Positions 10,379 to 21,618 of a DNA stretch of 64,000 nt are shown here, in pieces. The position numbers and the translations under genes were made by a program. The notes under the pieces were generated by a model that saw nothing but the letters and a program-made list of their open reading frames with translations, did not search any database and was not told the DNA's origin. The number at the start of each line of letters is the position of its first letter. Position 1 is the first letter of the stretch. The stretch is from a virus (Duplodnaviria > Heunggongvirae > Uroviricota > Caudoviricetes), in IMG/VR virus record IMGVR_UViG_2713896908_000007. The stretch is one strand, 5' to 3'.

Positions 10379-11521
10379 TTATCCAAACCAATTTTCTAGA
10401 ACATTTTCAAATTTATGGGTAACTTGCCACCATAAATAGTTCTCTAATACATATTTCTTTCCGTTATTTGCAATTTGTTCTAATTTTTCGGAGTGTAATG
10501 TTTCATATATATCACTAGCTAAACTTTCTGGCAACATTGGTTCATTTATATGAAATCCTGTATGGTTATTTTTTACAAATTCAACCATTCCACCTCGAGT
10601 GCTAACTAAAACGGGTTTTCCTGCCCCCATAGCTTCTATAGCAACCATGCAGAACGGTTCTTGAAACTGAGATGGGATTACAACTAGATCGGCTATAGGA
10701 TAGTAACGGTACATATCATCTGGTTTTACCCCGCCAACAAGATGACAACGCGAACCAATAGTTCCAGCAAGTTCCCTTACTTGTTTTTGATATGCAGCTT
10801 TTTCTCCTTTATCTTTATTATTGTAGTCACCAACAACTACAAGTTCTATATTGTCACATGATTTTATCAATTTTTTAAACGCTTGTAATAGTAAAACAGT
10901 CCCTTTTTCAGGGGAGATCCTTCCCGCATAAAAGATAACTTTTTTCTCAGAGGGAATGCCTAAATCTTGTTTTGTTAGCGGGGGTAGCCCTTTATCTAGA
11001 TTGTGTGGTTCTGTACCATTAGGAACTATACAAATTTCAGCGTCAGGAAGATGTTTTTCATAAAAATCCTTTAAATACTGACTTGGAACAAGCATTTTCA
11101 CATTGCTATCTAGCCCTTTCGGTGTAAAGGCATTATGCATATGCATTATCATTTTTGCGTCAGGAGCTTTCTCTCTAATTTGACGATAAAGTTTCATGCT
11201 GTTATGAACAATAATAATGCTATCGTTTGTGATATTGAAATCTTTAGCAATGTTTAACACTCGTTGTGAATATGGAATAGGATCTATTCTGCTCCATTTT
11301 TGAAATATCCGTTTATAAAGACGGCTAAACCCTATTCTATGGATAGAGCATCGCTCATTAACAATATCTTTTTCTGAGAAACCATCCTCTCGAATGCATG
11401 CTATACGATTTGGTATTCTTGTTCTCTTTGCGACTTGATATATCCAAGTTTCAACAGCTGCTGCGCCACGAGGTGGTATTGAAAATATTGGTGTAACTGT
11501 AAATATTAATTTGTCAATCAT
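10379..11521 (-). CDS. Glycosyltransferase, GT4/GT1-fold (380 aa)
   Basis: EPFCMVAIEAMGAGKPVLVSTRGG motif typical of GT4 enzymes; ATG 11521 with AAGAGGA 9 nt upstream; AT-rich. Confidence 0.85.
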   Translation of the reverse strand: MIDKLIFTVTPIFSIPPRGAAAVETWIYQVAKRTRIPNRIACIREDGFSEKDIVNERCSIHRIGFSRLYKRIFQKWSRIDPIPYSQRVLNIAKDFNITNDSIIIVHNSMKLYRQIREKAPDAKMIMHMHNAFTPKGLDSNVKMLVPSQYLKDFYEKHLPDAEICIVPNGTEPHNLDKGLPPLTKQDLGIPSEKKVIFYAGRISPEKGTVLLLQAFKKLIKSCDNIELVVVGDYNNKDKGEKAAYQKQVRELAGTIGSRCHLVGGVKPDDMYRYYPIADLVVIPSQFQEPFCMVAIEAMGAGKPVLVSTRGGMVEFVKNNHTGFHINEPMLPESLASDIYETLHSEKLEQIANNGKKYVLENYLWWQVTHKFENVLENWFG

Positions 11522-12065
11522 GAGCAACTATCCTCTTATAATCTTTTTCCTTTAAATGTTTTTTTGGGGTTGCGGGAGAGCCCGCATACATTGTATTAGC
11601 AGGAACATCAGTATTTACAACGCTATTTGCAGCTATAACACTATTGTCTCCTATTTTTACACCTGGTAGCACAGTTGTATTTGCCCCAATCCAAACATTA
11701 CGGCCTATTTTTATTGGAGCGCAAATTGTTTCTTTGGGACGTTTGCTTGGTGTTAGTGGATGCGTGACAGTTGTTAATACAACGTTGGGGCCAATGGCAG
11801 AGTTACATCCAATATCTATTGTTTTTGCATCGAGAAAAACACAATTTGCGTTAATGAAGACCTTTTTATCAATAATTATATTGCCATTCTCAAAATAAAA
11901 TGGAGCTGTTATTGTTGAGTCTTCACTTACTTTAACTCCTGTTTTTTTTAATGTGATTAATTTTTTTCTTTTTGAGATCAAGGTATAATTAAATATATGT
12001 CTTGCTTTCTTTGCTTTCTTTTTTTGAAAAATTATATAGAAATAATATGTTAGCAAATCAAACAT
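11514..12065 (-). CDS. Hexapeptide-repeat O-acetyltransferase (WbbJ/LacA-like, 183 aa)
   Basis: Left-handed beta-helix hexapeptide repeats (IGRNVWIGANTTVLPGVKIGDNSVIAANSVV); stop overlaps glycosyltransferase start in ATGATTGA. Confidence 0.8.
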   Translation of the reverse strand: MFDLLTYYFYIIFQKKKAKKARHIFNYTLISKRKKLITLKKTGVKVSEDSTITAPFYFENGNIIIDKKVFINANCVFLDAKTIDIGCNSAIGPNVVLTTVTHPLTPSKRPKETICAPIKIGRNVWIGANTTVLPGVKIGDNSVIAANSVVNTDVPANTMYAGSPATPKKHLKEKDYKRIVAHD

Positions 12066-12089: not shown

Positions 12090-12356
12090 TTAACTATCAA
12101 ATGTGGCTCCTATTTCTCGCATTTTGTTAAGTATGATGTTTATTTCATTGCTACCGAGAGAAGTTTGGGCAGCTATGAAAAAAAGTATGTGCAATGACAT
12201 AGATCTGTTATTTTCTTTGTTTATATATTTTCTCCACTGGCTATCGCTGCTGACCCCGGCTAGTTCTGCCATTTGATTCCCTGTATACCCAAGCGTTTCT
12301 TTGAATTGACGCAAATCTTGTGATTTGGGGGGGGTGTAGTTGTTTATTAACCTCAT
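12090..12356 (-). CDS. Small HTH-like protein (88 aa from ATG 12356; track ORF extends to TTG 12419)
   Basis: Segment LGYTGNQMAELAGVSSDSQWRKY resembles an XRE-type helix-turn-helix; AT-rich; start uncertain. Confidence 0.35.
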   Translation of the reverse strand: MRLINNYTPPKSQDLRQFKETLGYTGNQMAELAGVSSDSQWRKYINKENNRSMSLHILFFIAAQTSLGSNEINIILNKMREIGATFDS

Positions 12357-12494
12357 ATTAAACCCATTATTGGTAAGCTTTCGTTGGTGTAATGGTAGCA
12401 CCAATGGGGCTGCTGTCAAGCGTCTTTTCTTTATAAATATAGGGAGCCATCAAAATCTGACATTAATTATCTATCGAAATATTTTGAATGACTG

Positions 12495-12520
12495 GTGAGA
12501 AGTTACTTTGCATACCATTA
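12495..12520 (+). promoter_or_regulatory. Candidate late-promoter motif (GAGAAGTTACTTTGCATACCATTACC) upstream of lydA
   Basis: Recurrent AGTTACTTTGCAT-type motif, also upstream of lyz. Confidence 0.35.
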
Positions 12521-13906: not shown

Positions 13907-15826
13907 ATGGAACAGTTCAATATCAATAAAGGGGTGACGATCAAACCTGGGCTTGACGTGCTTCCCCCGCCAGTGACTGATGATGAATATCGCGCATTAA
14001 TGGCCGGTGAGGACCGCTATCTGATGACGGAATCCAACACCCTGGAGGAAATCGAGGCTACGTTCTTCTATGACAAGCCGATCCACTGGTGTGCTACGGA
14101 TTTACTGGAGGCGATTAGTTCTACTCGTTTGCAGTTACACCGGACCATGCAGGCATTTGTCCGGGCATTGAACCAGAAGCTGAATGGTACCGGAATCTCT
14201 GCGGGGAGTGATAAAACGGGGGATGTGGCCCAGAGCGGCGCGCGCGCGATCGGCGGCGCTGAAATTGGTCGGGCACGTAACGTTAACGGGCTGCCGGTCC
14301 TGCCAGCCATTATTCCGCTCAGTGATGGTCAGACTATCAGCATTTTGTTTCATAGCCCGACAGCGGAAAACCGGATCACCAATAGCGATACGCTGGTTGC
14401 TTTCCAGTTCTTACTGAATAAAAAAGACGTTACTCACACCGTTGCTCCGATGAGTGGACGTGATATGACGCTGGCGCAGGTCACCATGAAACTTGCCAAC
14501 CTTGCAGAGAAAAACTCGGCAAAATTCCAGCGTGCGCAGAAGAAGAAAAAAGCCCTGGTTGATGAAATAACCCAACTACAGGCTGACAGTGACCAGAAAG
14601 AGGATGCCATGAGCGACCTCGCGGATCAGGTGGCAGCGGTAGAAGGCCAGAAGGCAGATCTGGAGCAGAAAATTAACGCGGTTGCTTCGGAAGCGGATTC
14701 TCTTTATCAAGAAAATGAGCGTTTGCAGGCGGAGATTGAGCAGCTCAATCGCACTGGTGGGCGCGATACCATTGCTCCAACGGGGATGACTGGTGGGCAC
14801 TCTCGCGCGCTGACGGATCGCCTTGCCAGTATCAAAAATCGTATGCATATGGACGGGGAAGCGACGCTCAGTAATGGTGCATCAATGAAGCAATTCATTG
14901 GGGACGGCAAAGGGTATGTCCAGTTAACCGATCCGGATGGCAGCGTGTACATGATCAAGGCTAAATCCATACAGGGTGTGGACATGGCAGATGCGATCGG
15001 CAAGCTGTTTAAAGCCTATAAAGCGGGTAACGTATCGGAATATCTGGTCCAACCAGAAGAGCCTAAACCGGAAAACGTCGAACCTGAACCAGCGGAAGAT
15101 ACCGGTAGCTCTTCGCCTGAACCAGAAGTCTCTGTAGGTGCATATCGATATGCCCTGCAAATGCGTCCGGCGGCCCCAGGCGCGATACCTGAAGGTAACA
15201 AAGCAATTCTGCCGTGCCCTGATGAAGGTGACCCGTATTATGAATATGCGCGCTACGGCATTGTTACTTACGATACCCCGCTTTCTGATCAGCAAATGAG
15301 TGAGTACGACCTGAAGTTATTGCCTCGCGAGGATTCTTTCGACTTCCTGGCGAAGACACTTACTAATGGTCCGTTTGGCAAATATGCACAAAAAGCTCTG
15401 GAGCTGGCCACCAGCTCACCAGACGAGTTCCGCGTAATGCTGAAAACTCAGTTTCAAAAAACTTTCCCCAATATTGCGTTTCCGGGGGGCGCAGGCACCG
15501 AGAAAATGGTGCAGAGCATGATCAATGCATTGCAGGCCGAAGTCGGTGAGATTACTCAACCAGAATCGGCCCCGGAACAGCATGATGAAAAGGTTAGCGA
15601 AGCAGATGCAGAGGCTAATAAAGCCATTGAATATCTCAATAACGTGATGGATATGCAAAGCACTGACATGGCGGAGATCCGCAACGCCAGGGGCAATGTC
15701 AGGGAAGCGATTGCTGCCCTTCAGGCTGCCGGACGTTTTGATGAAAACGAAGAGCTGGTTAACGGCGCAGCTCGCCACCTGGCTGATCTGCTGGTAGCAA
15801 TCCAGAAAGCGGGAGGAGCGGCATGA
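13907..15826 (+). CDS. darA: DarA-like antirestriction/capsid-internal protein (639 aa)
   Basis: Large ORF after hdf in the lydAB operon; internal coiled-coil; synteny with P1 darA operon. Confidence 0.75.
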   Translation: MEQFNINKGVTIKPGLDVLPPPVTDDEYRALMAGEDRYLMTESNTLEEIEATFFYDKPIHWCATDLLEAISSTRLQLHRTMQAFVRALNQKLNGTGISAGSDKTGDVAQSGARAIGGAEIGRARNVNGLPVLPAIIPLSDGQTISILFHSPTAENRITNSDTLVAFQFLLNKKDVTHTVAPMSGRDMTLAQVTMKLANLAEKNSAKFQRAQKKKKALVDEITQLQADSDQKEDAMSDLADQVAAVEGQKADLEQKINAVASEADSLYQENERLQAEIEQLNRTGGRDTIAPTGMTGGHSRALTDRLASIKNRMHMDGEATLSNGASMKQFIGDGKGYVQLTDPDGSVYMIKAKSIQGVDMADAIGKLFKAYKAGNVSEYLVQPEEPKPENVEPEPAEDTGSSSPEPEVSVGAYRYALQMRPAAPGAIPEGNKAILPCPDEGDPYYEYARYGIVTYDTPLSDQQMSEYDLKLLPREDSFDFLAKTLTNGPFGKYAQKALELATSSPDEFRVMLKTQFQKTFPNIAFPGGAGTEKMVQSMINALQAEVGEITQPESAPEQHDEKVSEADAEANKAIEYLNNVMDMQSTDMAEIRNARGNVREAIAALQAAGRFDENEELVNGAARHLADLLVAIQKAGGAA

Positions 15827-16209
15827 CACTATCAGCTATTGAGTTAATGGACCTCAGCGATAAGTTGGATGCTCTGATGTCCAAAGCTGCTACCGCGAGT
15901 GGCATGGAGTTGCTGGATATCAGCGATGAAATTGACCAGATCATGCAACAGATGGGGTACGGCGCGTCCGGCGGCGGTAGTGGCGAGGAAAAACAACCTT
16001 CAGTACATGATGGTGTGCCAAAACTGGTTGCTGATTTCCTGGCTGATAAATTCGTCGATCAGAGCACCGATGCATTTATCGGCACCTTGCAGGACTTGAG
16101 TCAATATGTTGGCACATACATCGACCTGGACCAGGTTAAACAGCACACGGCGGCATGGATAGCCGCCAACATTAAAGAGGCTTCAGGTGTTCGCAGCAAC
16201 TCTACATGA
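15823..16209 (+). CDS. ddrA: DdrA-like protein (128 aa)
   Basis: ATGA overlap with darA stop; followed by an intrinsic terminator. Confidence 0.6.
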   Translation: MTLSAIELMDLSDKLDALMSKAATASGMELLDISDEIDQIMQQMGYGASGGGSGEEKQPSVHDGVPKLVADFLADKFVDQSTDAFIGTLQDLSQYVGTYIDLDQVKQHTAAWIAANIKEASGVRSNST

Positions 16210-16270
16210 GCTGTAGTTTTCGAAGATTCTCACAAGTTCATTTCGCGTAGGTATTTATTTAACCATTAAA

Positions 16271-16308
16271 GCCGAATGCGGCGGGCACACCACATTCGGC
16301 AATTTTTT
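16271..16308 (+). terminator. Rho-independent terminator (GCCGAATG..CATTCGGC + TTTTTT)
   Basis: 8-bp stem 16271..16300 followed by AATTTTTT; between convergent ddrA and gldA. Confidence 0.7.
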
Positions 16309-16342
16309 GAAAACTATCAATGAATTAAATAATCAGAGGGGC

Positions 16343-17446
16343 TTATTCCCACTCTTGCAGGAAACGCTGACCGTACTGGTCGGCTACCAGCAGTGCAGCA
16401 TAAACCTGATCTGGCGTTGCGCCGCCAGGCATGTTGTGGATGGTTTCACCTTCTGCACATGCCGCTTCTGCGACAATCCGCATTTTCGCCGGGATATCTT
16501 CTTTAATATCCAGTTGTGCCAGGGTAATTGGCAGGCCGACAGCATGGCACAGCGCAGCTACGGTTTCGATTTCTTCAACTGGTGCGTTTTCCAGAACCAG
16601 TTGCGTCAGCGTACCGAATGCCACTTTCTCACCGTGATAATAGTGATGCGCATCCGGAATGGCCGTCAGGCCATTGTGCACCGCGTGCGCCGCCGCCAGG
16701 CCGCCGCTTTCAAAGCCCACGCCGCTCAAATAGGTGTTAGCTTCAATCACACGTTCCAGCGCCGGAGTCACCACATGCTGTTCAGCGGCAAGCATCGCTT
16801 TTTCGCCTTCTTCCAGCAGGGTGTTGTAGCACAGTTCAGCCAGAGCCAGTGCTGCCTGAGTACATTTACCGCCCGCCATCGTGGTTGCGCCGCTGCGGGA
16901 ACAGGCACGTGCTTCAAACCAGGTTGCCAACGCATCGCCAATACCCGCCGCTAACAGACGTGCAGGTGCGCCAGCAACAATTTTGGTATCCACAATGACG
17001 CGTTCCGGGTTGTTTGGCAGCATCAGATAACGTTCAAACTCACCATCATCGGTGTAGATAACGGAAAGGGCGCTGCAAGGTGCGTCGGTTGAGGCAATGG
17101 TTGGGGCAACTGCAACAGGAACGCCCATAAAGTGTGCCAGTGCTTTGGCTGTATCGAGGGTTTTACCTCCGCCGATTCCCAGAATTGCGCTACACTGAGC
17201 ATTCTCTGCAATACCCCGCAGACGATCGATTTCATTTTGCGAACATTCACCGCCGAACGGGGCAATTTCTACCTCTATTCCAGCATCTTTAAAACTTTTC
17301 TCAATATTAGTTTGAGCAAAACCTAACACAAATTTGTCACCTACCACCAACCAATGTTCTGCCAGCGGTTTCAGGTATTCACCCAGGCGATTAATGACAT
17401 CTGCGCCTTGGATGTATTTACCCGGTGATTGAATGATGCGGTCCAT
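16343..17446 (-). CDS. gldA: Glycerol dehydrogenase (GldA/DhaD family, 367 aa)
   Basis: Full-length iron-containing alcohol dehydrogenase fold; N-terminus [30 protein letters not shown] and [14 protein letters not shown] motif; AAGGAG 5 nt upstream of ATG. Confidence 0.9.
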
Positions 17447-17517
17447 AATTGCTCCTTTAGAGATGAGTTATGCTAAATGTTTTGTTATTCCCGGATGACC
17501 TTCTGTATATATCTTAA

Positions 17518-17536
17518 GTCAACATTATAAGTTGAC
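17518..17536. promoter_or_regulatory. Inverted repeat GTCAAC-N7-GTTGAC in gldA upstream region
   Basis: Perfect 6-bp arms in the divergent intergenic region between gldA and the 562-aa gene. Confidence 0.3.
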
Positions 17537-17749
17537 GCCAATATTCCGTAGAAGAGATGTTACTTCGCGAGCAGTATGACTCCATAGGTTTCTGAGACGT
17601 TACTTTGCATATGATATTGCTGAGGCAAATACATTCAATGCCGCATTTTTGTGAGATTTTAAGCCAATCTACATCACCATTAGGTAAGAGTATCTTTTTT
17701 TGGTGGTGATGGCGCAATGTATCAGTGGACAGCATAAGGTGTAACAGGG

Positions 17750-19438
17750 ATGTGTTTGAACGATCATACAGTTATGGCCACCAGCAGCGGCTACATCGGT
17801 GTGGCACCGTATACCCGCTTGCTATTACATCAGGCATCCGGCATCAAAGATATTATTCACCTGATCAGGCTGCTTTCCCGTACAGATCCCCAGGATGAAC
17901 AGCTTGTTCAAGTGCTTGCGCATTTTGTCCGAATGCCTGTTGCCGACGTGAAAAAATGGTGCCGATTATTCGGTATCAGCAATTCGTTACTTCGCGGATT
18001 GTTAAATCACGCATCCTCCCTTGGGCGCGACGGATTTGATGAGATAGCGCAGGCGATAAAAAACGGAGATATGCCACCAGCTATTGACTGGTTTTCCATT
18101 CGCCCAACCAGGGTGAAAGCATTCCTTAGTGCGGCGCAATCAGCATCACCATTGGCAGAAATGGTTCAGAGGTTGTCGCTCATATTCACAGATCATACCG
18201 CGTTCGGTGATCTGGCTCTGGACGAGATGAAAGAAGCCTCCATTCAGTGGGCCGCTCAACAAAATGAGGTTAACTCAGACTTCTTGCCAGCATTCAGGAA
18301 GGCCGTTAGTAAAGCGGATGATGCCCGTGGAATTCTGAAGGCATTTAAGGCATTGCAAAGTCGGGTTAATAAACATGTCGGTGATATCGATGGGGTAACG
18401 GCGGAAGGCAGGGATATCCTTAAAGAGCACGGCATAACGCCAGAGTTTATTGATGAGATCAGGACGGATATGCAGCGTGAGGTCGTATCGTCCCTGCAAA
18501 TTGTAGCCAGAGCGTTGGCGGATGCTAATCCGAAGAGTGCGGCCATTGTTAACCGGGTTATTGGTGATATTGAAGCATCGGAGGGCATGGGGGCGCTGAA
18601 ACTCTTCCTTTCGCGAGCGTTTAATCCTAACGGCAATATTCTCCCTGGCATTATTGGTGAGGCTAAAAGGTATGTCAGTGAAGAAGAACTTGAGCAGCTT
18701 GACCAACTACTTAAGCGATTCTCATATAACCCGCAGACACGCTGGCAAATGAATCAGCGAAGTATGGGTTCGGTCCACGAGAAAGTGTTATCTGCCATGA
18801 ACAGTGCGATCGCAAACTCATCCGTATCTGAAGAAAAAGCTCTTGAGTGGGCCGACTCTTTTATCACGGAAGAAGTGGAAGAAGCCCGCGCTGGACAGAA
18901 TGGTGGGATAGACCTGCGCAAGGAACTTGCTGATATTTATCGCCTGACCGGCGGTAAAATTTCGACCCTATCAAAGATAATTCACCACCAGGGAAGGGCA
19001 TATGCAAATCTTAATGGTATTGTTGCTGTCAATTTGAACGATGAAAATGCAAGCGCACTGTGGCACGAGCTTGGTCATCATCTTGAGTACAGTAACCCTG
19101 GTCTGTTAGAGAAAGCCAGGTCATTCCTGAAGGCCAATGTTGAAGGGGATAAGCCATCTTTCGTTAATATCGGTGGGCGTGGTAAACCTGAATGGTGCTT
19201 CAGATCTCGATTGAGTAATATTTATATGGCGAAGGTATACCCGCCAGCCTCAGTGAGTAACTCCGGGAAAATTCGGCAGAAAGCACCGACTATTTCCAAA
19301 ACGTCAGCAACGGAAGTATTCTCTATGGCTCTTCAGTTGTATCATGACAAAGAGGCCGCTGCCGCATCACTGATGAATGGTGACGGATTGCTGGAACTGT
19401 TATTAGGTGTGGCAAAGGAGCTAAATAATGCAGATTAA
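17750..19438 (+). CDS. Hypothetical protein with C-terminal zincin-like HExxH motif (562 aa)
   Basis: WHELGHHLEY motif near residue 440; AAGGTG 8 nt upstream of ATG; no other recognised domain. Confidence 0.7.
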   Translation: MCLNDHTVMATSSGYIGVAPYTRLLLHQASGIKDIIHLIRLLSRTDPQDEQLVQVLAHFVRMPVADVKKWCRLFGISNSLLRGLLNHASSLGRDGFDEIAQAIKNGDMPPAIDWFSIRPTRVKAFLSAAQSASPLAEMVQRLSLIFTDHTAFGDLALDEMKEASIQWAAQQNEVNSDFLPAFRKAVSKADDARGILKAFKALQSRVNKHVGDIDGVTAEGRDILKEHGITPEFIDEIRTDMQREVVSSLQIVARALADANPKSAAIVNRVIGDIEASEGMGALKLFLSRAFNPNGNILPGIIGEAKRYVSEEELEQLDQLLKRFSYNPQTRWQMNQRSMGSVHEKVLSAMNSAIANSSVSEEKALEWADSFITEEVEEARAGQNGGIDLRKELADIYRLTGGKISTLSKIIHHQGRAYANLNGIVAVNLNDENASALWHELGHHLEYSNPGLLEKARSFLKANVEGDKPSFVNIGGRGKPEWCFRSRLSNIYMAKVYPPASVSNSGKIRQKAPTISKTSATEVFSMALQLYHDKEAAAASLMNGDGLLELLLGVAKELNNAD

Positions 19439-19892: not shown

Positions 19893-20771
19893 GTGAAAAG
19901 AATTATTCCTGATAAAAAATGGTTAAAAGAAGAAAGCAGTAAGCGACAAGTGCCATCAGAATGTCCCTATGCAAATTCATATCGATGTCCTAGATATCAC
20001 GAAAGTGTTATTTTGTTCTCACAGATGCAAATGATTGATGGCATGTCATATAATAAAGAGAAGGAGTTGAAACAGTTCTGGGAGAGAACCGACCTCTCTT
20101 CTTTATGTAATGGAGAAACCCCGTTGGTCTCAAAAAATGATAAAGGCGGGATTTTCTCTATAGATAATTTCTGTCCAGAAATATCGTTTAGATATTTAGG
20201 TTACTATGCAGACTATATGCTGAGATACATTGATGAAGATGCTCACACTATAGGGTATGGCATAGCTAAAAGAGATCAGAAAGAAAATGATTGGAAGTAT
20301 GATTGGTCCGAGGTCAATGCTGTTTTCTATGAGGATTGTTACCTCTTTGAGAGAGTTAAACAATTCAATAAAGAACTTCATGATAGTTTCTTTAAAAGAC
20401 TACATCCGAATATTGTAATGCAAATAAGTAGAATGGATAAGTGTTTGGACTCAAATGACCCAACCGGTGTTTTGCATGCGGCATCTAATATTCTAGAAAC
20501 AATGGCTAAAGAAATATTAGATGATCCAAATGTATTAAATAAATCGTTTGGCTCTTTTTTTGAGAAGTTTAAAAAAGAGTCAAAGTTGCCGTTAGGGTTT
20601 ATTAATGCAGTTAAAGATATTTATGACTTACGTAATAAAATACCTACTGCTGGTCATGGGGGGGTGGGGATGCCTGGGTTATCTTTATCTGATGCCATAA
20701 TGATTGCTGCATCAACAAAGGCTATTGTAGAGATTGAGTACAGAAACATTGATGTGGCTGCTATTGATTGA
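19893..20771 (+). CDS. AT-rich hypothetical protein, possible abortive-infection-type protein (292 aa)
   Basis: Low-GC Lys-rich ORF with own upstream AT-rich region and AAGGAG; C-terminal DIYDLRNKIPTAGHGG resembles Abi/HEPN-type R..H motifs (weak). Confidence 0.55.
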   Translation: MKRIIPDKKWLKEESSKRQVPSECPYANSYRCPRYHESVILFSQMQMIDGMSYNKEKELKQFWERTDLSSLCNGETPLVSKNDKGGIFSIDNFCPEISFRYLGYYADYMLRYIDEDAHTIGYGIAKRDQKENDWKYDWSEVNAVFYEDCYLFERVKQFNKELHDSFFKRLHPNIVMQISRMDKCLDSNDPTGVLHAASNILETMAKEILDDPNVLNKSFGSFFEKFKKESKLPLGFINAVKDIYDLRNKIPTAGHGGVGMPGLSLSDAIMIAASTKAIVEIEYRNIDVAAID

Positions 20772-20835: not shown

Positions 20836-21618
20836 TTAATCACTTTCTACCTCTTCCGTTGAGTTTTCCAATGCTGCGCGACACAATTTCCTGGCATTGG
20901 TTATAGCCACACTTTTTACCTCATCCGTCATTGTACAGGTAATGTACTGATCGAGTTCTTCAGCTCGGATGATGCTTTTCCCAATCATAAACTCTATTTG
21001 CCAGAGCAGATCGGCATCCATCGTCAGTATTTCAGCCTGGCCTTCTGGGCCTGCGGGGAAGCAAACATAAGACTGTTTGCCCAGGCCGATAACTCGACAA
21101 CTTGCTTCAAGAATTGCACGCTTGAGGTCTGACTTTGTAACTGAAACAGGTTGATTTTCACCTGTGATTACGCCGTTGGCATGGACGTGGAAGGGCATGT
21201 AGCTTGAAATTCGCTCTACTTTCCATACGCCAGCAAGCGATCCTTCATGCAGCACAATGGGGGTAACCGCGAGTTTCATCTCACCATATAACTGCTGGCA
21301 GATAGCTGGATTGCTGAATACATCCAAAGGTTCACACTCAAACAGCGGTGCAATCTGCATGAGGTCCATCATGGTCATACCAGGGGTACGAGCAGTAATG
21401 AATCTGCGCATTCCAGTATCCATTGTGCGCCAGATAGCTACACCATGCTTTTTGCTCACTTCTTCAGTAAAGCCAAGGTGGCACATGATGGTTTTTTCGA
21501 TAGCCAGATCAGAGATAGAAACCTTTTCGCCTGGCACGCCATCATTATTGATGGTCACTTCGACACTCTGGCCATTACGTAGGCGGTATTGAATGGTTTT
21601 AGTATTTTGTGCTGTCAT
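20836..21618 (-). CDS. Hypothetical protein (260 aa)
   Basis: Long ORF with no recognised motif; lies in accessory island between ssb and gldA. Confidence 0.55.
   Translation of the reverse strand: MTAQNTKTIQYRLRNGQSVEVTINNDGVPGEKVSISDLAIEKTIMCHLGFTEEVSKKHGVAIWRTMDTGMRRFITARTPGMTMMDLMQIAPLFECEPLDVFSNPAICQQLYGEMKLAVTPIVLHEGSLAGVWKVERISSYMPFHVHANGVITGENQPVSVTKSDLKRAILEASCRVIGLGKQSYVCFPAGPEGQAEILTMDADLLWQIEFMIGKSIIRAEELDQYITCTMTDEVKSVAITNARKLCRAALENSTEEVESD

Follow-up and report, generated by a model that had tools for sequence, protein, structure and literature searches.

Locus organization

We analysed a 64,000-nt stretch of DNA (the whole of it is referred to below as the window) from the IMG/VR virus record IMGVR_UViG_2713896908_000007 (Duplodnaviria; Heunggongvirae; Uroviricota; Caudoviricetes), a phage-plasmid related to P1 that carries a complete gene for glycerol dehydrogenase, gldA, between the anti-restriction genes ddrA and ddrB. 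These two genes are neighbours in P1 and in most P1-like plasmids. The window represents a genuine P1-type element, with 13 matches to the operator of the C1 repressor (0.37 expected) and recognizable late promoters. Counted from the first letter of the window, the features of the locus are as follows.

15823..16209, plus strand: ddrA, whose last nine codons and stop (16182..16209) come from the insert
16182..17730: the gldA cassette, 1,549 bp, lying between ...AAAGAGGC and AGCATAAGG... of the ddrA-ddrB junction
16271..16308, both strands: hairpin (16271..16300) with a T-run (16303..16308), a predicted bidirectional intrinsic terminator
16343..17446, minus strand: gldA, intact, encoding a predicted NAD-dependent glycerol/L-1,2-propanediol dehydrogenase (367 aa, ATG start)
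17447..17479, minus strand: native gldA leader, comprising AGGAG (17456..17452) and a remnant of the 3' end of fsaB (17479..17457)
17518..17536: inverted repeat GTCAAC-N7-GTTGAC, candidate gldA promoter with a putative overlapping operator
17593..17615, plus strand: look-alike of a P1 late promoter of the Lpa type, consisting of TGAGA, a -22 box ACGTTACTT (17597..17605), N4 and a -10 element TATGAT (17610..17615)
17611..17638, minus strand: second sigma-70 promoter candidate for gldA, TTGAAT-16 nt-TATCAT, the sole match of a promoter scan
17731..17749, plus strand: retained old ddrA stop region and ddrA-ddrB spacer (AGCATAA GGTGTAACAGGG), directly before the ddrB ATG, as seen in the alignment with P1 and the empty site
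17750..19438, plus strand: ddrB, 562-aa short form, without ~430 N-terminal-side residues of the P1 protein

GldA interconverts glycerol and dihydroxyacetone and has a role in fermentative glycerol use. Against the NCBIfam GldA equivalog NF047954, the product of the window gene reaches 749.5 bits (residues 1-365 on the 365-position profile; curated cut-off, 700 bits), and the Pfam family PF00465 (Fe-dependent alcohol dehydrogenases, Fe-ADH) is listed for exactly this protein. Its alignment with the solved Escherichia coli GldA (PDB 5ZXL) runs from end to end, with 16 of the 367 residues substituted (~96% identity) and no substitutions in the NAD-binding glycine motif GGGK (residues 92-95), the stretch around D171 or AAHAVHNG...HHYYHGEK, the Asp and His residues of which bind the metal in this family. 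Nine lineage-specific substitutions, mostly conservative, all fall at positions 31-138, in the N-terminal domain. The Shine-Dalgarno sequence AGGAG ends 5 nt before the ATG, and gldA is convergent with lydA-lydB-hdf-darA-ddrA, which lie on the plus strand. The G+C content is 53.0% in gldA, 38-40% in its flanks and 47.3% in the window as a whole. An earlier annotation of this DNA, made from the letters alone (the sequence-only reading), had described a full-length 367-aa GldA with a strong Shine-Dalgarno sequence, convergent to the dar operon and carried as host-derived cargo in a P1 backbone; the family score, the P1 context and the chromosomal matches described below bear this out.

The insert was delimited by a three-way alignment of the window, P1 and a P1-like plasmid with an empty, gldA-free site. 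It lies within the last codons and stop-codon region of ddrA, a point absent from the sequence-only reading. DdrA ends in ...IKEAA before the stop codon in P1, in ...IKEASGVRSNST in the window and in ...KEFSGVINHST in a second subclade of gldA-bearing elements (see below); given this different ending, the tail of DdrA appears to be poorly constrained. The gap between ddrA and ddrB is 12 nt in P1, and the two genes are contiguous in the short-form plasmid CP063732.1.

No transposase or integrase open reading frame (ORF), terminal inverted repeats, target-site duplication or attC site was found in the 1,549-bp insert by inspection of the ORF list and a repeat search, and the junction is clean; capture of gldA by a transposon or insertion sequence (IS) was rejected as these supporting features were not found. 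We also rejected a 73-aa ORF (17514..17735, minus strand) as a small gene or regulator, since every difference in it between the subclades is non-synonymous, and two P1-like copies as well as both incompatibility group F (IncF) copies have a frameshift in it. A search of the cassette flanks for riboswitches and small RNAs gave no Rfam match at E <= 1.

The 995-aa DdrB of P1 has an extra N-terminal ParB-like domain (DdrB-type ParB; PMC5512222). The short ddrB of the window (compare L002, 4402..7389) retains about twelve codons from the start of the P1 gene along with its C-terminal half, and the missing stretch is the one with the ParB domain, a natural in-frame deletion or insertion polymorphism in an anti-restriction protein. 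Replacement of the 5' half of ddrB by gldA was ruled out because the same 562-aa gene and start region are present in the gldA-free CP063732.1. Decay of ddrB after the loss of its link to LPdar, the late promoter of the dar operon, was ruled out as well: the reading frame is open in 13 of the 14 gldA-bearing elements, and an absent gene call does not amount to a broken frame. In one gldA-bearing plasmid, p2RM15115 (CP043244.1; L088, ~5588..6845), an insertion of ~1.26 kb breaks ddrB near codon 340.

Origin of the gldA cassette

In E. coli, gldA follows ptsA and fsaB at the end of an operon that is poorly expressed aerobically (PMC6643234). Matches of the cassette to Escherichia chromosomes (5,426 E. 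coli genomes as well as E. albertii, E. whittamii and other representatives) run from the gldA stop codon to position 17479 only, so that homology ends 33 bp upstream of the ATG. Base-by-base comparison identified the outermost 23 nt as the last 7-8 codons of fsaB with its TAA (...AFGTTHL, then stop). Because the fsaB end, the native spacer and the ribosome-binding site are all retained, gldA must have been cut out of a ptsA-fsaB-gldA operon. The sequence-only reading had allowed for a passenger in a captured chromosomal fragment and had looked to flanking chromosomal synteny for its source. The fragment is indeed chromosomal, and it is a minimal one that comprises gldA, its ribosome-binding site and 23 nt of fsaB; there is no synteny beyond 17479.

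At the nucleotide level, the window gldA is 87.9% identical to the chromosomal gldA of E. albertii and 87.9-89.6% identical to those of all sampled Escherichia species (synonymous divergence, dS, ~0.5-0.6), and the encoded proteins are 95-96% identical; the ratio of non-synonymous to synonymous divergence (dN/dS) against the chromosomal alleles is ~0.04. In a neighbour-joining tree, the phage-plasmid alleles, together with one allele from an E. coli IncF plasmid, form a clade with 100% support within an Escherichia-type clade that is likewise supported at 100%, and no sampled species is a supported sister of the phage-plasmid clade. Both the chromosome of the E. albertii host and E. coli were therefore rejected as the donor, with 87.9% identity to either and no bootstrap-supported sister. 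Thus, the gene is of host type in the sense that it is Escherichia-like; it is not the allele of the present host, and the proposed search for the donor lineage ends at the genus, with no sampled species as the source. Given the 87.9-89.6% identity and the lack of a supported sister, the donor would be an unsampled deep lineage of Escherichia, or gldA would have been plasmid-borne for a very long time.

The flanks of gldA within the cassette do not come from elsewhere on plasmids: in PLSDB, the 5' and 3' flanks were found only with the cassette (17 and 16 records respectively), and the only significant similarity of the 5' flank to the rest of the window is to the core of LPdar.

Distribution

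The 2.5 kb around gldA are 100% identical to the E. albertii plasmids NZ_CP117651.1 and CP045689.1, and the order ddrA-gldA-ddrB was found in 15 complete E. albertii plasmids of 95-103 kb from several projects (96.7-100% identity). Wild birds were the source of many of the gldA-bearing plasmids. Around 480 other matching plasmid records, mostly P1-like and matched through the backbone flanks, are without gldA, as are 19 of 19 matching phage records. An index of assemblies lists the identical protein in 38 blocks. In 28 of these, the longest contig with the gene measures 50-200 kb, no block has one above 200 kb, and every locus shown for the protein has a P1 context. The gene is thus restricted to contigs of phage-plasmid size.

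The cassette gldA was not found among 50,697 phage records, which gave only distant matches to Salmonella gldA (66-80% identity), nor in other IMG/VR records. None of the 5,426 complete E. coli genomes has a P1-linked gldA; the sole match of the cassette type is on the plasmid pZ1323HEC0477-2. P1-like phage-plasmids are present in 41% of UK isolates of E. albertii and are concentrated in the avian clusters 6 and 7, in a study that makes no mention of gldA (bioRxiv 10.1101/2025.09.12.675607). Full-text searches for gldA or glycerol dehydrogenase in P1-like phage-plasmids or in E. albertii returned nothing relevant: the gene is already annotated in deposited records, but no discussion of it turned up in the literature that could be searched.

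Selection and history on mobile elements

The gldA-bearing phage-plasmids fall into two subclades that share the same insertion point. Between them, gldA is 97.0% identical, hdf, darA, ddrA and ddrB are 96-98% identical, and the 3' and 5' flanks of gldA within the cassette are 91-92% and 98.6-98.9% identical respectively. Since the junction is the same in both subclades and gldA is as diverged as the backbone, the cassette was inserted once, long ago, and has since diverged together with the backbone, with purifying selection acting on gldA. Within the phage-plasmid lineage, gldA shows ~25 synonymous and 8 non-synonymous differences (dS ~0.10, dN/dS ~0.10), and it is intact in every copy examined. 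The sequence-only reading had left the choice between an auxiliary metabolic gene and a passenger; with dN/dS at ~0.10 over a dS of ~0.10 and all copies intact, a maintained auxiliary gene is favoured over a neutral passenger.

Diverged copies of the cassette also occur on IncF plasmids. In pEA32_1 from E. albertii (NZ_CP117601.1, 5900..7730; L004), the cassette is followed by ~100 bp of degenerate ddrA-stop/ddrB-start sequence and lies next to yacAB; because of this adjoining sequence, the plasmid appears to have received the cassette from a P1-like element, which indicates transfer from a phage-plasmid to a conjugative plasmid. The coding region of its gldA resembles E. coli (96.7%) and the flanks are of the cassette type, a combination suggestive of gene conversion by an allele from a chromosome. 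One E. coli IncF plasmid has an allele with 91.8% identity and shares the 5' flank up to position 17622. Two further E. albertii plasmids (NZ_CP117564.1; L099, 4001..4634; and NZ_CP117557.1), one of them typed as IncF, carry only unannotated gldA fragments (85.5% identity over ~630 bp). Outside the P1-like backbone, the cassette seems to decay.

Transcription signals

The sequence-only reading had placed a terminator between the dar operon and gldA, and a stable predicted structure was found there. Folding of the hairpin gave -18.1 kcal/mol (z = -3.8) on the plus strand, where it is followed by AAUUUUUUG, and -23.3 kcal/mol (z = -5.0) on the minus strand, where it is followed by UUUAAUGG. The same hairpin was detected as the inverted repeat I14, and its stem is kept in the second subclade and in pEA32_1. 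A simple terminator scan limited to loops of 3-8 nt did not report it, presumably because its apical part exceeds this limit. As modelled, the hairpin may terminate transcription in both directions, from the dar operon (plus strand) and from gldA (minus strand).

The GTCAAC-N7-GTTGAC repeat that the sequence-only reading had noted upstream of gldA as a possible regulator site is present as described. On the gldA strand, its spacer contains a perfect TATAAT (17529..17524), preceded by a weak -35 element, TCTACG (17552..17547; 3 of 6 positions matched). The arms of the repeat are unchanged in 10 of 10 diverged copies, including those on IncF plasmids, in which the spacer reads CATAAT; this invariance is weak evidence, since the overall identity is ~88% or more anyway. 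By chance, 300 bp would contain ~0.07 perfect 6+6 repeats for any single spacer length, and about one if a dozen spacer lengths are allowed. The promoter scan that produced the second candidate returned one match against a mean of 2.6 in shuffled sequences, i.e. not above chance; the -35 element of this candidate is not conserved in the IncF copies, whereas the TATAAT candidate is kept in all ten copies.

Despite the 13 C1-operator matches in the window, none lies within ~4.5 kb of gldA, and control of the gene by the C1 repressor was rejected because there is no operator nearby. Likewise, no late-promoter match faces gldA on its own strand upstream of the gene. From these two negative results it follows that expression in the lysogen would be the most likely mode.

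At the far end of the cassette, 135 bp ahead of the ddrB ATG, the 5' flank contains the look-alike of a late promoter (TGAGACGTTACTTTGCATATGAT, 17593..17615), which was absent from the sequence-only reading. Late promoters of P1 are defined by a conserved 9-bp repeat that binds Lpa (PMC10695390); the annotated LPdar of P1 consists of the -22 box AAGTTACTT, N4 and TACCAT. The look-alike matches the LPdar core at 18 of 19 positions; the spacer between its box and -10 element is TGCA, with the canonical 4 nt, and the -10 element fits TANNNT. A strict late-promoter motif, GTTACTT-N4-TANNNT, occurs three times in the 64-kb window (0.07 expected): in LPdar at 12502, in the 5' flank of the cassette, and at 4931, which corresponds to Ps, the experimentally mapped late promoter of the R/S tail-fibre operon of P1 (M81956.1 annotation). 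The motif is invariant in 8 of 8 P1-like copies of the cassette, and the -22 box is mutated in both IncF copies. From these matches, Lpa-dependent transcription towards ddrB would be predicted to start in the 5' flank of the cassette. The flank also contains a 15-nt direct repeat, with copies 40 bp apart (GAGATGTTACTTCGC, 17554..17568, and GAGACGTTACTTTGC, 17594..17608); the upstream copy is a second Lpa-box-like sequence (17557..17565), without a usable -10 element.

Functional interpretation

Taken together, these observations are probably best explained by a functional, host-derived gldA that serves as an insulated moron, or auxiliary metabolic gene, and is expressed in the lysogen. The gene would have been excised from an Escherichia-type ptsA-fsaB-gldA operon by a cut within the last codons of fsaB and inserted once, by illegitimate recombination, into the ddrA stop region in an ancestor of the P1-like lineage associated with E. 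albertii. It would thereby have come to lie antisense to the late dar operon and have lost its native operon promoter. Transcription may start instead from a sigma-70 promoter in the AT-rich 5' flank, for which the best candidate is the TATAAT inside GTCAAC-N7-GTTGAC; free of control by a C1 operator or a late promoter, gldA would be expressed in the lysogen. Late transcription arriving from the dar operon and transcription of gldA would both stop at the bidirectional hairpin, and late transcription into the intact ddrB would resume from the Lpa-type promoter at the opposite end of the cassette. The lysogen would gain a second GldA uncoupled from the poorly expressed ptsA-fsaB-gldA operon, encoded on a low-copy phage-plasmid, with a change in dosage or timing; more or re-timed interconversion of glycerol and dihydroxyacetone, and reduction of hydroxyacetone, methylglyoxal or lactaldehyde, would then amount to lysogenic conversion. 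Higher expression of the ptsA-fsaB-gldA pathway has been found to improve growth on dihydroxyacetone (PMC6643234).

Several points weigh against this interpretation. The inverted repeat, taken alone, is within chance expectation and is not significant; neither sigma-70 candidate is strong, one having a -35 element with 3 of 6 matches and the other being a scan match at chance level. In the late-promoter look-alike, one mismatch to LPdar breaks the palindrome of the box (ACGTTACTT against AAGTTACTT), and so short a match could be a chance feature that the donor DNA already had. Recent recombination between the subclades could also account for the high conservation of the 5' flank. In addition, the phage-plasmid branch shows about three times as much dN for its dS as the chromosomal gldA genes of E. 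coli and E. albertii do when compared with each other, which could mean partly relaxed constraint. Finally, the type strain of E. albertii, NBRC 107761, has an intact chromosomal fsaB-gldA, so that the benefit of a second copy is not obvious.

Some of these points suit a neutral hitch-hiker, a gene captured by accident and kept through its linkage to a successful phage-plasmid lineage, with no benefit and perhaps no expression. The insert lacks transposon machinery, no selective rationale is obvious, a gldA is already present on the host chromosome, the promoter predictions are weak, and the copies on IncF plasmids decay to fragments (two plasmid matches and pEA7_2). Neutrality sits poorly, however, with a dN/dS of ~0.10 accumulated over a dS of ~0.10 while the gene was borne by phage-plasmids, with the intact state of gldA in all examined copies, and with a non-coding 5' flank that is more conserved than the adjoining genes. 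P1 packages its DNA by the headful, and 1.5 kb of useless DNA would be costly under such a mechanism. We regard this explanation as unlikely.

The position of gldA within the dar anti-restriction operon, the NAD dependence of its product and the two Lpa-box-like sequences in the cassette (17557..17565 and 17597..17605) might also suggest an auxiliary or counter-defence factor of the lytic cycle, with GldA altering the NAD+/NADH balance or glycerol pools during lytic growth. Yet gldA lies on the strand opposite to the late operon, the late-promoter motif faces away from it with none on its strand upstream, the product is an ordinary GldA with unchanged catalytic motifs, and the same cassette survives on IncF plasmids that are not phages, all of which makes a lytic role quite improbable.

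It is more doubtful still that the phage-plasmid gldA compensates for a lost or inactive chromosomal gene in the carrier (avian) clades of E. albertii. The restriction of the arrangement to E. albertii, the concentration of P1-like phage-plasmids in avian clusters 6 and 7 (bioRxiv 10.1101/2025.09.12.675607) and the purifying selection on gldA would fit such a role, whereas the sole E. albertii chromosome examined, that of the type strain NBRC 107761, which is not a carrier strain, retains an intact fsaB-gldA. A bolder proposal, which we consider highly speculative, is that the cassette goes beyond metabolic cargo and belongs to a phage toolkit for conflict: GldA, encoded within the anti-restriction dar operon and next to Lpa-type boxes, would manipulate NAD+/NADH or glycerol-derived metabolites during infection or induction and so aid phage replication or blunt a host defence; in a milder version, it would be a niche-defining conversion gene that explains the fixation of the lineage in bird-associated E. 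albertii.

An assembly chimera of chromosomal and plasmid reads, which the sequence-only reading had named as the finding that would undo it, can be excluded because the arrangement is replicated across independent assemblies, with the same junctions in 15 complete plasmids from independent projects and the same context in the contigs read among the 38 blocks that hold the exact protein; moreover, the allele is 12% away from the chromosomal gldA of the host, and insert and backbone co-diverge between the two subclades.

Other variable regions of the window

Two further intervals of the window differ from P1. Between the tail-fibre assembly gene and lydA, at ~10380..12065 on the minus strand (L001, 581..2267), there is a GT4-family 'LPS N-acetylglucosaminyltransferase' (LPS, lipopolysaccharide) together with a hexapeptide-repeat acetyltransferase (Pfam Hexapep), a pair that may form a conversion module modifying O-antigen or LPS; in P1 and in some relatives (L091, L095-L097), its place is taken by cin and lydC. 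The pair is adjoined by a 109-aa ORF (12090..12419, minus strand) that, judged by eye, is a putative helix-turn-helix regulator. In the interval bounded by the hxr-like gene and ssb, which isaB, IS1 and isaA occupy in P1, the window has two ORFs, one of 292 aa (19893..20771, plus strand), for which no Pfam match was found, and one of 260 aa (20836..21618, minus strand). Because relatives carry Tad2-like, ompC or IS elements there, the hxr-ssb interval appears to be a hotspot for cargo.

Comparison with known systems

The enzyme itself has a well-characterized counterpart in E. coli GldA (b3945; PDB 5ZXL), a group III metal-dependent Fe-ADH (PF00465) with the same length of 367 aa, ~96% identity and the same NAD and metal motifs. 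The ribosome-binding site and the fsaB-gldA junction are shared as well. The copy in the window differs in being located on a phage-plasmid, severed from ptsA-fsaB and their promoter, in being ~12% diverged at the nucleotide level from every sampled Escherichia, and in its nine substitutions in the N-terminal domain.

The late-promoter look-alike resembles LPdar and Ps of P1 in its layout, TGAGA-ACGTTACTT-N4-TATGAT against TGAGA-AGTTACTT-N4-TACCAT in LPdar, with the same spacing and likewise aimed at a late gene. It differs from them in the single mismatch of its box and in its location on foreign DNA and not on the backbone.

Phage morons, as described by Hendrix and colleagues, are extra genes with their own promoter and terminator, located between genes that are adjacent in related phages. 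The window gldA is similar to morons and auxiliary metabolic genes in its position between ddrA and ddrB, its deviant G+C content and its origin as a host metabolic enzyme, and also in having its own terminator-like hairpin and candidate promoter. In contrast to typical morons, it lies antisense within a late operon, and its cassette may have brought, or evolved, a phage-type late promoter that would drive ddrB anew. Carriage of host metabolic genes by temperate elements is a known phenomenon, and in principle neither this nor the enzyme is surprising. If gldA were neutral, it would be an annotation curiosity only; otherwise the cassette would be a compact natural example of a temperate element that has domesticated a host gene and kept its late operon unbroken, the insert being bounded by a terminator at one end and a late promoter at the opposite end. 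It further suggests that a P1-like element may be connected with the ecology of E. albertii in birds, an idea that can be tested directly.

Phage-plasmids are increasingly recognized as carriers of accessory traits, and the cargo documented on them consists mostly of resistance, virulence and defence genes carried by transposons. Among P1-like elements, cargo such as mcr-1 on a P7-like plasmid (PMC5786510), a case of resistance cargo, or ompC in CP063732.1 is comparable to gldA in being an accessory gene in a variable spot of a conserved backbone. The case of gldA differs in that the gene has no IS or transposon vehicle, belongs to central metabolism rather than to resistance or virulence, and is old and clade-wide instead of sporadic, with a pattern of divergence that points to selective maintenance.

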